Positions 1-5,925 of a DNA stretch of 5,925 bases are shown here, piece after piece. The stretch is from Octopus sinensis. Its lineage: Eukaryota. The translations under genes and the position numbers were made by a program. Under the pieces are notes generated by a model that saw only the letters and a list, made by a program, of their open reading frames with translations, was not told the origin of the DNA and ran no database searches. The stretch lies in assembly GCF_006345805.1 (NCBI RefSeq), contig NW_021829783.1, forward strand, positions 1 to 5,925. Direction: 5' to 3'. Position 1 is the stretch's first letter. Each line of letters opens with the position of its first letter.

Positions 1-461
1 TAAATAAGATGATAGGAAGAAACAAAAAAAGAAATGAAGAACCAAAAAAAATAAAAAGGAAAAGGTGGAGTTGCAGCAGGGAAGGGTGTAAGTGGGAGAG
101 GAGGAGGAGGGGGAATGAATCGGAAGAGAAGGAGGTTGGAGAGGAAGCTGGAGAGGAAGTGGAAGGGGAGAACATATCATATCTCACAGAACTATAGGCA
201 GTTATTAACCATCGTTTTCACTGTCAAAAGTAGAAGGGTTTTGAAGATAAAGGTGCGATTGACATCGAAGATGTGCAAGAGAATAGAAGAGAACGCGTGG
301 ACCGTGAGGATGTGGGTGGGGGTAGAGAGAGAGGGGAGAGGTGGGGAGAGGAGGAGAGAGGAGGAGAGAGGAGGGAGACCGGGTGGAGAGATGGCAGACA
401 AGTAACAGGAAGAGGATGTGGAGGGTGCGAGGAAATTGAAGGAGTTGAAGAAGAAGGAGAA

Positions 462-462
<1 letters not shown>
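1..462. repeat. Purine-rich (GA/GGA/GAA) low-complexity region
   Basis: Strongly A/G-biased + strand with degenerate GGAGAGA units (e.g. gaggagagag repeats around 345-372). The short ORFs here are compositional. Confidence 0.75.
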
Positions 463-492
<30 letters not shown>

Positions 493-525
493 AAGAAGAA
501 GAAGAAGAAGAAGAAGAAGAAGAAG
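463..525. repeat. Perfect (AAG)21 microsatellite
   Basis: Uninterrupted AAG from 463 to 525. Confidence 0.97.
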
Positions 526-619
526 AAAATATGTTATGACGAATAGGATTGGATGTGGTTAACGTGATAACTGAAGGGGGTGGGGAGCAGGGGTGGCCAT
601 TGTGTAGCTGGTAATTTGT

Positions 620-643
620 GGTGGCGGTGGCGGTGGCGGTGGC
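620..643. repeat. (GGTGGC)4 hexanucleotide tandem repeat
   Basis: ggtggc x4 followed by ggggg. Confidence 0.9.
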
Positions 644-674
644 GGGGGAAGTAATTATAGTAGCAGTAGCTAAT

Positions 675-962
675 GATGATGACGACGACGACGACGACGA
701 TGATGATGATGATGATGATGATGGTGATGATGACGATGACGATGGTGATGATGACGATGACGATAACGATGATGTTGATGACGATGACGATGATGATGAT
801 GTTGATGATGATGCTGATGATGATGATGATGATGTAGATGATGATGATGATGATGGCGATGATGATGATGTTGATGATGATGATGATGTTGATGATGATG
901 ATGATGACGATGTTGATGATGATGATGATGATGATGACGATGACGATGATGATGATGATGTA

Positions 963-999
<37 letters not shown>

Positions 1000-1102
1000 T
1001 AGATGATGATGATGATGTCGGTGTTAGTGATGGTGAAGGAAGTAGTGATATTGGTAGTGATGTCGGTGGTGATAGTGGTGGTTGTGATATTGATGGTGGT
1101 AG

Positions 1103-1156
<54 letters not shown>

Positions 1157-1203
1157 CGATGATGACGACGACGATGATGATGATGATGATGATTTTGATG
1201 ATG
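675..1203. repeat. Long imperfect (GAT)n microsatellite with degenerate core
   Basis: GAT units with in-phase GAC/GTT/GGT/GTA/GCT variants at 675-1016, degenerate mostly-NNT triplets at 1017-1103, and near-pure GAT/GAC at 1104-1193. Confidence 0.95.
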
Positions 1204-1258
1204 AAATCTTTCCGAAATTTAGATGAAGGTCGGCGTGTAATTTCAAAGGAAATCTGTT

Positions 1259-1525
1259 GTGCTCCGACAGAGACATTTCTGCAATTTCTTGGTGAACGAC
1301 CGGCACAAATGACTTTCGCTGTACAGTTGCTCATTCCGTTCATAAAAGTCGACGTTGCCTGCACGAGTACACCGTGTACAACATATCAGGAGCCGAAGTG
1401 GTCGAGCAACGTGAAATGAAGTGCTATGCACATGAACGCAACGCACCCACCACCTGCTCCGGGAAGCGAAACCAAGATCGCAAGAACGTGAATGCATCAT
1501 CCTAACTAGCAGGGTCACACACCCT
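1259..1525 (-). mobile_element. Old, degenerate tRNA-derived SINE (family C-like head)
   Basis: Minus strand reads agggtgtgtgaccctgctagttagg...ggtttcgcttcccggagc...tgcgttgcgttcatg (decayed A and B boxes), alignable to the + strand head at 5111-5199 (aaggtgtatggctcagtggtaag...gtttgattcccggact...tgtgttgtgttcttg). The head (about 1400-1525) is supported internally; the 3' boundary near 1259 is approximate and rests on recollection of similar octopus repeats. Confidence 0.6.
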
Positions 1526-1531
1526 CGGTTA

Positions 1532-1922
1532 AGTGGAGGCGCAATGGTTCAGTGGTTAGGGCAGCGGACTCGCGGTCATAGGATCGCGGTTTCGATTCTC
1601 AGACCGGCGTCGTGAGTGTTTATTGAGCGAAAACACCTAAAAAGCTCCACGAGGCTCCGCAGGGGGGAATGGTGGTGGATCCCTGCTGTACTCTTTCCAC
1701 AACTTTCTCTCACTCTTACTTTACTGTTTCTGTTGTACCTGTATTTCAAAGGGCCGGCCTTATCACTCTCTGTGTCACGCTGAATATCCCGAGAACTACG
1801 TTAAGGGTACAACGTTGTCTGTGGGAGGTGCTCAGACATTTACACGTTAATTTCACGAGCAGGCTTGTTCCGTTGATTCGGATCAACCGGAACCCTCGTC
1901 GTCGTAACCGACGGAGTGCTTC
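1532..1922 (+). mobile_element. Full-length tRNA-derived SINE, family A copy 1 (tRNA-Arg-like head; resembles octopus OR1/OR2-type SINEs)
   Basis: A box TGGTTCAGTGG 1545-1555; B box GTTTCGATTCTC 1589-1600; 5' about 185 nt shared with 3604-3781; 16-bp TSD cacacaccctcggtta (1516-1531) / cacacatcctcggtta (1923-1938), 15/16 identical. The family name is from memory. Confidence 0.9.
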
Positions 1923-2194
1923 CACACATCCTCGGTTATTACATCGGTTCGTAGAGCTTGAACAATCTTGGTGCAATCGGCATAAGTATTTTTTTTCCAA
2001 TCATTTTACACAATGTTGGTGGAAAGGGAAAAATGTGAAAGATGTCATGGTTTTTATTTGTAAACGTGTGTGAGCATTGTGAGAATTGTGAATAAGAAAC
2101 ACTGATTGCACAAACCACTAGTCAAATACAGTTCTATATTTAAGAGATGAGGGATTATGTACATTATTTACATTATTTACATCTTGTTTGTTAT

Positions 2195-2242
2195 TAACAC
2201 AACGTTTCGGCTGATATACCCTCCAGCCTTCATCAGGTGTCA
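2195..2242 (-). ncRNA. Minimal type I hammerhead ribozyme motif
   Basis: Minus strand: UGACAC-CUGAUGA-A-GGCUGG-agggUAUA-UCAGCC-GAAAC-GUU-GUGUUA. Core boxes CUGAUGA and GAAA are present; stem II is 6 bp; stem I UGACAC/GUGUUA is 6 bp; stem III is reduced to the loopless palindrome ACGU; predicted cleavage after GUU (between 2201 and 2200). Confidence 0.8.
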
Positions 2243-2318
2243 TGGGGAAATTTCGAATATTAGGTCTCATTCTTAAGGTAATTTCTTAAGTTATTTTCCG
2301 ATGTTATTATTATCAAAT

Positions 2319-2441
2319 AGGTCAATTTTGCCTTTCATCCTTTCGGGGTCGATAAATTAAGTACCAGTTACGTACTGGAGTCAATCTAATCGACTGGTCC
2401 CCTCCCCCAAAATTTCGGGCCTTGTGCCTAGAGTAGAAAAG
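2319..2441 (+). mobile_element. 5'-truncated SINE, family B (copy B0)
   Basis: Matches the 3' half of 3918-4134 and 4135-4353 (gcctttcatcctttcggggtcgataaattaagtaccagt...agtagaaaagattatt); lacks the A/B-box head; tail merges with (ATT)n. Confidence 0.88.
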
Positions 2442-2542
2442 ATTATTATTATTATTATTATTATTATATTATTATTAGTTATTATTATTATTATTATTAT
2501 ATTATATCATCATCATCATATTATTATTATTGTTATTATTAT
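2442..2542. repeat. Imperfect (ATT)n microsatellite with short (CAT)n insert
   Basis: Directly visible ATT triplets. Confidence 0.93.
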
Positions 2543-2619
2543 TCAGTCACTGCTTGGAATCGAACTCGGAATCTTGGAGTTAGTAGCCCGCGCTCTTACC
2601 ACTACGTCATAGCCAGTGA

Positions 2620-2666
2620 GGCTACTAACCCCAACATTCCGAGTTCGATTTCAGGCAGTGACCTGA
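2620..2666 (+). repeat. Inverted partial copy of the tRNA-like head (B box only)
   Basis: ggctactaaccccaacattccgagttcgatttcaggcagtgacctga is the reverse complement of 2543-2588 with 4 mismatches and 1 indel; spacer is 31 nt. Confidence 0.9.
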
Positions 2667-2774
2667 TACTACTACTACTACTACTACTACTAATAATAAT
2701 AATAATAATAACAACAACCAACAACAAACAACAACAACAACAACAATAATAATAATAATAATAATAATAATAAT
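2667..2774. repeat. Compound (TAC)n(TAA)n(CAA)n(TAA)n microsatellite
   Basis: Directly visible. Confidence 0.95.
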
Positions 2775-3347
2775 CCAAAAATGAAAACTTTTATTCTTTT
2801 TTCGTTTTATTTCTGTTTTTTGTTGTTGTTGTTTTTTTTTTGTTAGACTGATAACTGTTTCGTCTAAATTTTTCTTACGTTTCAAACATTTTACAACCTC
2901 AGCTTCCGTCAAAAAATCCTGCGAACTTTGACATTCTTTTGTACGAGGTAGCTGAAGAATTTTACGAACACAGTATCAATTACTTTAAACACCACATAGA
3001 GTTTAGATTCACCTTCCTGATTTTGTCGTATCCAATTTTTTTTCTTGAAATTTCATTATTAGCTTTTTTTTTTGATATCTGATTTTAAAAAATTAGGTTA
3101 AGATAATAATCTAAGTCGAAAGTGTATACCATCTTTCTATTATGTCTTCGTTGTGTCGCGTATAATGACTAGTTTCATAAAAGTGTTTAAAAATATGGTT
3201 ATGATACTTGACGCTATTGTGACGAGGGAAGTGATGTTTGAACTGTTGTTATTAGCGATTACATTCTAAATGTATTTCTATCTATATTTGTTTGGTGGCC
3301 AATGTTTGATATTCAGTGTATGTTTAATTTTCGGGAGTATGTTATTT

Positions 3348-3581
3348 AATTCTTTATTGCCCACAAGGGGCTAAACATAGAGGGGGACAAGCAAGGACAG
3401 ACAAATGGATTAAGTCGATTACATCGACTCCACTGCGTAACTGGTATTTATTTAATCGACCCCGAAATGATGAAAGGCAATGTTAACCTCGGCGGAATTT
3501 GAACTCAGAACGTAGCGGCACACGAAATATCGTCAAGCATTTTGCCCGGCGTGCTAACGATTGTATCAGTTCGCCGCCTTG
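3348..3581 (-). mobile_element. Full-length SINE, family B (copy B1, alternative 3' tail)
   Basis: Minus strand begins aaggcggcgaactgatacaatcgttagcacgccgggc; B box GAGTTCAAATTCC 3506-3494; 19-bp TSD tttcgggagtatgttattt (3329-3347) / ttttgggagtgtgttattt (3582-3600), 17/19 identical. Confidence 0.9.
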
Positions 3582-3603
3582 TTTTGGGAGTGTGTTATTT
3601 TTA

Positions 3604-3906
3604 GTGGGGGCACATGGCCTAGTGATTAGAGCAGCGGACTCGCGGTCGAGGGATCACGGGTTCAAATCTCAGACCGGGCGATGTGTGTGTTTATGAGCAG
3701 AAACACCTAAGCTCCACGCGGTTCCGGCAGAAGGTAATGGCGAACTTCTGTTGACTCTTTCGCCACAACTTTCTCACTCTTTTCTCCTGCATCTTGTAGC
3801 TCACCTGCGACGGACCGGCGTCCCTTCCAGATGGGGATCCTATACGCCAAGGAAACCGGGAAACCGGCCCAAATGAGCCAAGCATGGCTCGAGAAGGAAC
3901 AAACAA
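3604..3906 (+). mobile_element. Full-length tRNA-derived SINE, family A copy 2 (different 3' tail)
   Basis: A box TGGCCTAGTGA 3615-3625; B box GGTTCAAATCTC 3659-3670; gcagcggactcgcggtc is identical to copy 1; aacaaacaa tail; exact 11-bp TSD tgttattttta at 3593-3603 and 3907-3917. Confidence 0.9.
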
Positions 3907-3917
3907 TGTTATTTTTA

Positions 3918-4134
3918 AGGTGGCGAGCTGGCAGAATCGTTAGCAAGCCGGGCGAAATTCTGAGGTATTTCGTCTGCCGCTATGTTCTGAGTTCAAATTC
4001 CACCGAGGTCAACTATGTCTTTCATCCTTTCGAGGTCGATAAATTAAGTACCAGTTGAGTACTGCGGTCGGTGAGATCGACTGTCCCACTCCCTACAAAA
4101 TATAAGCCGTGAGCCAATAGTACAAAGGATTATT
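3918..4134 (+). mobile_element. Full-length SINE, family B (copy B2)
   Basis: A-box-like TGGCAGAATCG 3929-3939; B box GAGTTCAAATTCC 3989-4001; conserved ctttcatcctttcgaggtcgataaattaagtaccagt domain; ends aaaggattatt. Confidence 0.9.
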
Positions 4135-4353
4135 AAGGCGGCGAGCTGGCAGAATCATTAGCATGCCGGGCGAATTCTTAGCGGTATTTCGTATGCGGCT
4201 ACGTTCTGAGTTCAATTACTGCCGAGGCCGACTTTGCCTTTCATCCTTTCGATATCGATAAACTAAGTACCAGTGAAACACTGGGGTCGATGTAATCGAA
4301 TAGTCCCGTCCCCTCAAATTTCAAGCCTTCTGGCTCCAGTAGAAAGGATTATT
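4135..4353 (+). mobile_element. Full-length SINE, family B (copy B3), tandem to B2
   Basis: Starts aaggcggcgagctggcagaatc immediately after the B2 attatt tail; colinear with B2; ends agtagaaaggattatt. Confidence 0.9.
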
Positions 4354-4441
4354 AAACGTATAATTTTCGGTTTATTAAGCTCCCATGCAGTGATGAAAAA
4401 TCTGGTAGTTTTCATAATATCATTACAAGTTGTCAGAATAA

Positions 4442-4667
4442 TAATCTTTCTTCTATAGACAAAAGGCCTGAAATTTGTGGGACGGGGGAGTAGTCGATTA
4501 CATTGAACCTTCCCCCAGTACACAACTGGTACTTATTATTCAATCGATCCCGAAAGGATGAAAAGCAAAGTCAACCTTTGCAGAATATGAATCCAGAATG
4601 TCAACAGATGAAATTCCGCCAAGCATTTTGTCCTGTGTGCTAACGATTCTCCCAGTTCGCTGCTTTG
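4442..4667 (-). mobile_element. Diverged full-length SINE, family B (copy B4)
   Basis: Minus strand begins aaagcagcgaactgggagaatcgttagcac and contains ttttcatcctttcgggatcgattg...taagtaccagt, ending tagaagaaagattatt; degenerate TSD agttgtcagaataa (4428-4441) / aattgtcaaagtaa (4668-4681), 11/14 identical with all differences A/G transitions. Confidence 0.85.
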
Positions 4668-5110
4668 AATTGTCAAAGTAAAAAAAAGTTGTGGTGTAGC
4701 TGCCAAGTTTGTTGGCTGAGCTGCGTGATGATAAAAACTGATTTTATTGCTGTTGCCGTTCTTGTTAATACTCTATAAACTGACTGGACAAACTAATTGT
4801 CGAATTAGACAAGCTATTCCATCATCCATGACCACACCATCATTGTGTGATATATATATAAGGAACCCAAGAACTCATATTATCGAACATGTCATTTTTC
4901 TTTGAACGTACGGTGCGAAATTAGGGAGATTCGACTTCTATGTTTAGCCGGCCAAGCGACAACATTGAAGCTCTCTCAGTGGTTCCTTTCGTAAAGGTTT
5001 TTTTCTTACAATAGAATTTTAACTGTCGGTGTAGGATTCCAAAATGAAATTTAAGTAGTCCTGATAGTACTTTCTAGGAAACTGTTATTTAAAGTGTTTA
5101 ATACTCTATT

Positions 5111-5425
5111 GAAGGTGTATGGCTCAGTGGTAAGAGTGTCCGGCTCACAATCATGAGGCAGAGAGTTTGATTCCCGGACTGCGCTGTGTTGTGTTCTTGC
5201 TCCATTTTAGTCACCTGTAGAAATGAGTTGCAACGTCACAGGTACCAAACTGTATCGGCCTTTGCCGTTCACTTGGATAACATTAGTGGCATGGAGAGGG
5301 GAGGAGGCTGGTATGCATGAGTGCTGCTGGCCTTCCATAAAAACAACCTTGCCTGGACTTGTTGCCTTCGAAAGGAACCTTTCTAGGCTCAGTCCCATGG
5401 TCATTCATGGTCGAAGGGGGTCTTT
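5111..5425 (+). mobile_element. tRNA-derived SINE, family C
   Basis: A box TGGCTCAGTGG 5120-5130; B-box-like GAGTTTGATTCC 5163-5174; GC-richer body than its flanks; terminal hairpin ccatgg-tcat-tcatgg 5395-5410. No clear TSD, so the 3' end is approximate. Confidence 0.75.
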
Positions 5426-5484
5426 TCTCATTTACATTTTACGCTTTAGAAAATAATACCTTCGAAAATATCAGCATCAGCATC

Positions 5485-5555
<71 letters not shown>

Positions 5556-5577
5556 GAGGAGGAGGAGGAGGAGGAGG
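5485..5577. repeat. Compound (AGT)23(AGG)8 microsatellite
   Basis: AGT at 5485-5553 then AGG at 5554-5577, preceded by short cagcat repeats. Confidence 0.96.
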
Positions 5578-5697
5578 CGCGGCGGTAAAGTGGAAGGAAT
5601 TTCAGTCGCATTCACTGTTGTCGCTATCGCTTGTCATCTTTGTTTTGGTCTTGATCACTGTGGTGGTTCCGTTTTTGGCCCTCTGCAGTTACATTGC

Positions 5698-5699
5698 CG

Positions 5700-5733
<34 letters not shown>

Positions 5734-5734
5734 T

Positions 5735-5782
<48 letters not shown>

Positions 5783-5783
5783 G

Positions 5784-5814
<31 letters not shown>

Positions 5815-5925
5815 CGTCATCATTATCATCATCACATCGTCGTCGTCATCATCAACATCACATCATCATCGTCATCATCTTTATCATCATCATCATCGTC
5901 ATCGTCATCGTCATCATCATCATCA
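5698..5925. repeat. Imperfect (CAT)n microsatellite running off the window end
   Basis: CAT units with CGT/TAT/CAC/CAA variants. Confidence 0.96.

Follow-up and report, generated by a model that had tools for sequence, protein, structure and literature searches.

The nearest described relatives of the element considered here belong to the Penelope/Poseidon group, among them Poseidon of Anolis carolinensis (PMC11167929) and the Schistosoma Cercyon elements with their minimal hammerhead ribozymes (PMC4209133). In Anolis Poseidon the hammerhead cuts 26 nt past the start codon, and reverse transcription starts 111-118 nt into the open reading frame (ORF). The minimal hammerhead has a short stem I, an extra base before stem II and a palindrome in place of stem III, and occurs as pairs on opposite strands (PMC4209133). 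An inverted, 5'-truncated partner copy is a hallmark of Penelope elements (PMC8557442). We describe a repeat from Octopus sinensis found in a stretch of 5,925 nt, called the window below (contig NW_021829783.1, assembly GCF_006345805.1, positions 1 to 5,925, forward strand). An earlier note on this DNA had interpreted positions 2129-2614 as a short interspersed element (SINE) with a tRNA-type promoter and a hammerhead, possibly mobilised by a Penelope-like element. Judged by its structure, the repeat is almost certainly the pseudo-long terminal repeat (pseudo-LTR) of an autonomous Penelope/Poseidon element, its place in this clade being assigned by similarity. The new feature is that an autonomous Penelope element has promoter boxes derived from a tRNA in its terminal repeat, with indirect signs that RNA polymerase III (Pol III) transcribes the element at full length.

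The repeat has a tRNA-like head, an (AAT)n linker and a hammerhead segment. A first look at the genome examined (2.72 Gb) gave 2627 candidates for the ribozyme segment and 1315 for the head, of which 40 each were scored. Of 29 loci chosen by the ribozyme segment, 24 have the head upstream of it in the same orientation; of 29 chosen by the head, 24 have the ribozyme segment at most 250 nt downstream (the window's own copy is excluded from both counts). In the window the two are separated by a fragment of an unrelated SINE family, B0; this fragment is found between them in none of the 24 head-picked loci where both adjoin. The adjacency is far above chance: head, linker and minimal hammerhead are one repeated unit, as the earlier note had proposed once B0 was set aside, and the independent occurrence of the two segments that it had named as the contrary outcome was not the rule in these loci. 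The family was present at one locus among 40 fixed 10-kb stretches, which suggests that the genome holds thousands of insertions, with wide uncertainty.

Some copies extend 5' of the head into shared sequence. When 30 loci were chosen by this upstream sequence, several ran for 0.6-1.6 kb into a frame with reverse transcriptase (RT) and endonuclease motifs and, in the longer copies, the head lies 29 nt past the stop codon of an RT/GIY-YIG ORF. The RT stretch matches RVT_1 of Pfam at E 1e-9. The C-terminal endonuclease stretch gave no Pfam match and resembles, judged by eye, the GIY-YIG end of three homologs (P0003, P0012 and P0058). A protein search returned 166 homologs, including an Anolis protein; most of the 120 listed carry PF00078, PF28514 and PF26215 together, and those with this combination show 33-69% identity, the close homologs P0001-P0016 lying at 52-69%. 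One homolog (P0028) matches a family locus (L070) up to residue 808 of 825, and the N-terminus of P0012 is similar to that of the family ORF. The zinc-finger-like linker of Neptune/Nematis elements is absent by eye in locus L075. The motif CxxPxCxxC, taken as a sign of this linker partly from PMC8557442 and partly as general background, is present in three control ORFs (L318-L320).

A further 30 loci were chosen by the 5' part of the ORF. In most of these the end of the repeat directly abuts the ORF, and the head lies just upstream in L118, L119, L120, L121, L125, L129, L135 and L137. The arrangement repeat-ORF-repeat occurs in L151 and L156, and partial tandems of the pseudo-LTR flank the ORF in L120, L125, L129, L151 and L156. 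In sequence, the end of the ORF is followed by the head, (AAT)n, the ATG, the hammerhead, the end of the repeat and the remaining ORF; solo, truncated and inverted copies of the repeat are also present. The ATG lies 34 nt before the hammerhead core, and its frame passes through the ribozyme into the ORF in L115, L119, L122, L131 and L137. Because this frame reads on into the ORF, the parts previously described as 'spacer, hammerhead, AT-rich end' are the first ~50 codons of the ORF. For the same reason the idea of a splice acceptor at the end of the repeat was dropped. A second 3' break ~250 nt into the ORF was also suspected; it was not supported, the breaks being scattered.

When 29 solo copies were aligned with 31 ORF-linked ones, none of the 195 columns was diagnostic after correction (best p 0.004). 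Since the whole unit, including its head, lies within a coding element and has no solo-specific subfamily, an independent tRNA-derived SINE was rejected. The link to Penelope in the earlier note was correct, being borne out by the RT ORF, its homologs and the copies in which a pseudo-LTR stands on either side of the ORF, whereas the separate non-autonomous SINE borrowing a Penelope RT, which it had favoured, was not: both head and ribozyme belong to the pseudo-LTR of the autonomous element. Nor is the head an unrelated SINE beside a solo Penelope repeat fragment, as the note's own counter-proposal had it: it is part of the same pseudo-LTR.

The window copy has the following parts:

2543..2614, minus strand: pseudo-LTR head, from tRNA-Arg(ACG) as aligned with the genome's own tRNA-Arg(ACG) genes; A box 2609-2599, B box 2565-2557

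~2442-2543, minus strand: upstream part of the (AAT)n linker (AAT/TTA repeat), fused with the simple repeat in which the inserted B0 SINE ends

~2314-2441, plus strand: B0, an inserted piece from the 3' part of an unrelated, tRNA-headed family of SINEs with four further copies in the window

2271..2313, minus strand: remaining linker and short leader ahead of the start codon, with a short AAT/TTA repeat at 2303-2313

2127..2270, minus strand: opening 48 codons of the Penelope ORF, free of stops in this copy; begins MRPNIRNFPMTPDEGWRVYQPKRCVNNKQ, with a short in-frame deletion

2196..2241, minus strand: predicted minimal type I hammerhead within the ORF start, from sequence, stems and the descriptor of PMC4209133

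2125..2129, minus strand: 3' end of the insertion, likely the start point of reverse transcription; the family end is at 2129 and 0-7 extra bases match the ORF continuation

2620..2666, plus strand: second head, inverted and 5'-truncated (partner arm), joined head-to-head

2667..2774, plus strand: microsatellite linker of the partner arm, which stops here

This is a decayed solo repeat with a typical inverted partner and an inserted foreign SINE fragment. All parts of the first map are present; the inverted second head had been overlooked. No target-site duplication was seen around the insertion, as had been remarked before. The B box of the head is intact and the A box carries a single G>A change with respect to the family; since, in addition, the B0 insertion brings TTTT to 2440 and 2412 on the sense strand of the element, this copy is likely to be inert. 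The length of the linker varies among other copies. On the window, ARAGORN finds no tRNA, and Rfam finds neither hammerhead nor tRNA and gives only chance snoRNA matches, which are due to the long microsatellites. Folding z-scores for ribozyme and head are not significant.

The hammerhead of the window copy has stem I at 2241-2237/2200-2196, CUGAUGA at 2236-2230, stem II at 2228-2209 and GAAA at 2208-2205, with a predicted cut after 2201 (GUU). Stem I has 5 bp, an extra A precedes stem II, and a palindromic ACGU takes the place of stem III. The minus-strand hammerhead recognised at the outset thus stands, although Rfam is silent, as a putative minimal type called by its match to the descriptor of the published examples (PMC4209133). 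Of 150 ungapped copies, 90 have kept the core intact. Covariation was not informative because the family is young and its copies decay neutrally, and in a co-fold of two ribozyme copies the catalytic dimer was not the minimum structure.

The head aligns base for base with the tRNA-Arg(ACG) genes of the genome; anticodon and stems are changed and both the A and the B box are kept, so that the tRNA-type Pol III boxes first noticed in the sequence are upheld. A sister copy of the head gives a weak Rfam tRNA match (14.9 bits, under the gathering score). On this alignment, the head of the pseudo-LTR is derived from tRNA-Arg(ACG). Elsewhere in the genome, ~95 listed matches to the tRNA-Arg(ACG) pattern stand in tandem and recur at intervals of ~206 bp (G000:C2:3121912-3157893). 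Other Penelope elements were also searched for tRNA-like heads, by a regular expression in 78 control loci and by Rfam in 18 of 79, a weak search as most of these are short contigs. Each method gave one candidate, in both cases L248, a metagenome contig with a tRNA-like sequence (L248:1964-2031, 38.6 bits) ~480 nt before a truncated Penelope RT; it is probably an unrelated insertion.

Copy starts were examined in 68 copies (29 chosen by the ribozyme segment and 39 by the last 70 nt). Head sequence is present in 43, and 34 reach position +11; 29 of these 34 start within -17..+11 of the first tRNA base (among the five longer starts, L235 is doubtful). Starts at the head are also found in copies without a partner arm (L003, L008, L018, L021, L026 and L203), and the full-length copies L118 and L137/L148 likewise begin there. 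An inverted partner arm is present in 40 of the 68, which makes most of the repeats seen head-to-head inversions. The 5' edge of the head can form a hairpin, no more stable than in shuffled sequences, and its position there can explain the fold-back junctions. No head-to-tail arrays of the short unit were found in the loci examined (solo, inverted or ORF-linked), no genome-wide array search having been made. The circular RNA that tandem short copies had been thought to yield therefore finds no support here, the repeats being mostly head-to-head rather than head-to-tail. Among ten non-inverted copies one (L203) has a 9-bp flank match and the remainder lie within the cross-locus null; L203 is a solo copy with, besides this flank duplication, a 4-base extension beyond the usual 3' end. 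A separate group of internally deleted copies (L112, L121, L124, L128, L130 and L135) consists of the repeat, 235-270 nt of ORF start and then, after a jump, a second repeat entered at its head or its ribozyme; two of the jumps land on the 5' edge of the head. These copies are possibly non-autonomous dimers with two hammerheads.

If Pol III transcribes the whole element, its sense strand should carry no TTTT; this prediction was set before counting. TTTT was counted in those 10 of 20 long loci whose ORF is continuous for 1.6 kb or more (1.6-2.3 kb each). Each of the ten has 9-21 TTT runs and 0-2 TTTT, making 8 TTTT sites in total, none of them shared between copies, where base shuffling predicts 3.7-5.5 per copy and a trinucleotide model 0.8-3.8. 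Synonymous resampling of 69 stop-free tiles gave 14.5 expected TTTT for 4 found (3.4 expected per unit, P ~0.03); in the same tiles, A5 and A6 runs are also under expectation (33 vs 44 and 6 vs 13). In a foreign control of 78 of 79 Penelope loci, those with sufficient coverage, the ratio of observed to expected TTTT is 1.55, compared with 0.19 in the family studied, and only one of 51 long foreign ORFs is free of TTTT. Two other Penelope-like families of the same genome supplied three intact ORFs, which contain 9, 13 and 10 TTTT at equal T content and have no A/B box. These ORFs (L318:432-2774, L319 and L320) are 775-883 aa long and have a CxxC linker; several open frames of 781 aa found along with them suggest a recently active family. 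The 3' region of L318 has repeated CCAAT-like and TGACGT motifs.

We consider it somewhat probable that Pol III, starting from the tRNA-derived head, makes the full-length template RNA of the element, because the boxes are kept, copies start at the head and no TTTT is shared. That the same RNA is also the translated message is a more tentative proposal, which we hold to be slightly doubtful. Under this model Pol III would start in the upstream repeat, at the first tRNA base or a few bases before it, and produce a transcript of ~2.8-3 kb through a sense strand free of TTTT. The RT/endonuclease would nick AT-rich DNA and the cDNA would begin internally, ~150 nt into the ORF sequence, giving the fixed 3' end. 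A start in the downstream repeat would leave 5'-truncated copies bearing the ORF; a start in the upstream repeat would run off at the RNA 5' end (the head) and leave SINE-looking solo copies like that of the window. The short hairpin at the 5' edge of the head would allow the cDNA to fold back, producing head-to-head pairs. Acting as a dimer or with the help of protein, the hammerhead would cut 70 nt past the ATG, and so would part head and start codon from the rest rather than free a SINE. In the more tentative version, the 2.5-kb ORF would have been purged of Pol III terminators, the AUG directly behind the tRNA-like leader would serve for translation of the uncapped RNA, and the hammerhead 70 nt downstream may switch off or mature this message.

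A number of observations weigh against this proposal. Translation of an uncapped Pol III RNA is not explained by the model. No intact ORF of the family was recovered. As the ten long copies share one ancestor, the scarcity of TTTT is a single observation of moderate significance (P ~0.01-0.03) with supportive controls; about 10 of the 78 foreign ORFs are, per kb, as poor in TTTT as single copies of the family, and a small control, 1.56 kb of a long interspersed element (LINE) of the same genome, has 2 TTTT where 5.8 are expected. The hairpin could stop RT at the edge of the head without any transcription start there. RNA evidence came from three raw unstranded RNA sequencing (RNA-seq) runs of one organism and contigs of a second, both of which cover the repeat; the indexed runs list no RNA that carries it. 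The three runs show neither a pile-up of starts at the head nor one of ends at the cut site, and 67-72% of the mapped reads continue into unrelated sequence. Because the libraries are unstranded and most reads run into other sequence, these reads reflect dispersed copies within other transcripts and are uninformative on the promoter. In one run (X21) read depth is ~2000-3000 on the repeat, ~700 on the ORF end and <20 on the 5' half of the ORF. From the literature, Penelope of D. virilis has a LINE-like internal promoter (PMC2377424), and autonomous elements are held to depend on Pol II because of the limited processivity of Pol III (PMC10886601).

The same points can be read differently, with the head as a passenger left by a tRNA or SINE in the 3' untranslated region of an ordinary Penelope element transcribed by Pol II or by read-through; 5' ends would then pile up there through hairpin and tRNA-like fold stopping RT, and the scarcity of TTTT would be due to chance or another cause. 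The junction hairpin agrees with this, as do the 331-401 loose read ends per run that leave at position -7 as fold-back inversions, the TTTT-poor LINE control and tail of foreign ORFs, and the missing RNA start signal. We nevertheless regard it as unlikely: copies without an inverted partner (the six named above) start at the head too, both boxes are kept, the other Penelope-like families of the same genome have 9-13 TTTT, and the head is located where the promoter of a tandem Penelope element is expected. Less probable again, and in our view improbable, is a form of the earlier note's model, in which a Pol III SINE has arisen from the pseudo-LTR and propagates itself as the solo units, copied in trans by the Penelope protein, the autonomous element being transcribed otherwise. 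Solo copies are indeed far commoner than long ones (run X21 depth), they hold the promoter boxes and the fixed 3' end, and TTTT is rare in their head and ribozyme segments (2 of 23 in one count and 8 of 61 in another). They form no subfamily of their own, however, a short SINE has no need of the avoidance of TTTT that spans the whole ORF, and the Anolis RNA requires ORF sequence beyond the RT start (PMC11167929), which the solo copies do not have.

A route like that of retrozymes, in which paired hammerheads excise an RNA of unit length, which after circularisation is copied round the circle by RT into tandems, has been proposed for Penelope elements (PMC4209133). The palindromic ACGU would permit the dimer, and the internally deleted copies (repeat, ORF start, repeat) would fit such a route. 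It is nevertheless very improbable for this family. No long head-to-tail arrays occur among the loci seen, copies end at the fixed 3' point and at the head instead of the cut site, and the triplet GUU is cleaved weakly. In vitro, the Anolis element did not need cleavage (PMC11167929). Transcription of the whole element by Pol III from the head remains the reading that we prefer.

The window contains other repeats. The B0 family has four longer copies (3911-4136 and 4129-4355, plus strand; ~3413-3581 and ~4439-4667, minus strand), the first two head-to-tail with a period of 219. A third family with a tRNA-like head lies at ~1529-1717, 3600-3781 and 5119-5182 (plus strand), its first two copies being 76% alike. 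Long GAA, GAT, AGT/AGG and TCA microsatellites occupy 447-527, 673-1204, 5485-5577 and 5700-5925.

If the head drives the element, it would provide a natural long protein-coding Pol III transcript in an animal, contrary to the view in PMC10886601; a testable promoter for a class of retroelements in which neither transcription nor the role of the hammerhead is well understood; and a path leading directly from an autonomous element to SINE-like hammerhead repeats such as Sm-alpha and the retrozymes. Even with a passenger head, thousands of apparent tRNA SINEs in this genome are Penelope terminal repeats, which bears on repeat annotation. The literature covered, which included work on mollusc SINEs and the giant squid genome (PMC4758252 and PMC6962438), gave no Penelope element whose promoter is of tRNA or Pol III type; subscription papers, supplements, Repbase and Dfam fall outside this scope and may hold the family, as may the octopus SINEs OK, OR1 and OR2 and the repeat library of PMC13282606. 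The available text of an octopus repeat annotation (PMC13282606) mentions no hammerhead, and that of a recent retrozyme study (bioRxiv 10.64898/2026.07.22.740005) has no occurrence of a tRNA or Pol III promoter.

The octopus element shares with Penelope/Poseidon elements a single ORF with RT plus a GIY-YIG-type domain at its C-terminus, partial tandems of the pseudo-LTR, the inverted 5'-truncated partner, a minimal hammerhead over the ORF start, a fixed internal 3' end and AT-rich flanks; its likely internal RT start and the hammerhead in the ORF start match Anolis Poseidon (PMC11167929) in particular. It differs in the tRNA-derived A/B-box head of its pseudo-LTR and in a sense strand without shared TTTT, neither of which was seen in the control elements or the Penelope literature examined. 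Non-LTR retrozymes (PMC7229834; bioRxiv 10.64898/2026.07.22.740005) are also short hammerhead repeats related to Penelope pseudo-LTRs, including monomers, but are defined by head-to-tail tandems and circular RNA, and no such tandems occur in the octopus loci examined. Sm-alpha and Sj-alpha of Schistosoma (PMC6765202 and PMC2770079) are dispersed repeats in which a tRNA-related Pol III promoter is likewise followed by a hammerhead; these are non-coding, form tandem short units and have an active hammerhead, whereas in the octopus a coding element supplies the unit, made of its terminal repeat and ORF start, and the hammerhead is of the minimal type. A small-RNA-derived Pol III promoter inside a terminal repeat is known from the TRIMp3 elements Cassandra, Helenus and Ajax (PMC10886601), which are short non-autonomous LTR elements, while the octopus element is Penelope-like, ~2.8 kb long and encodes its own RT.
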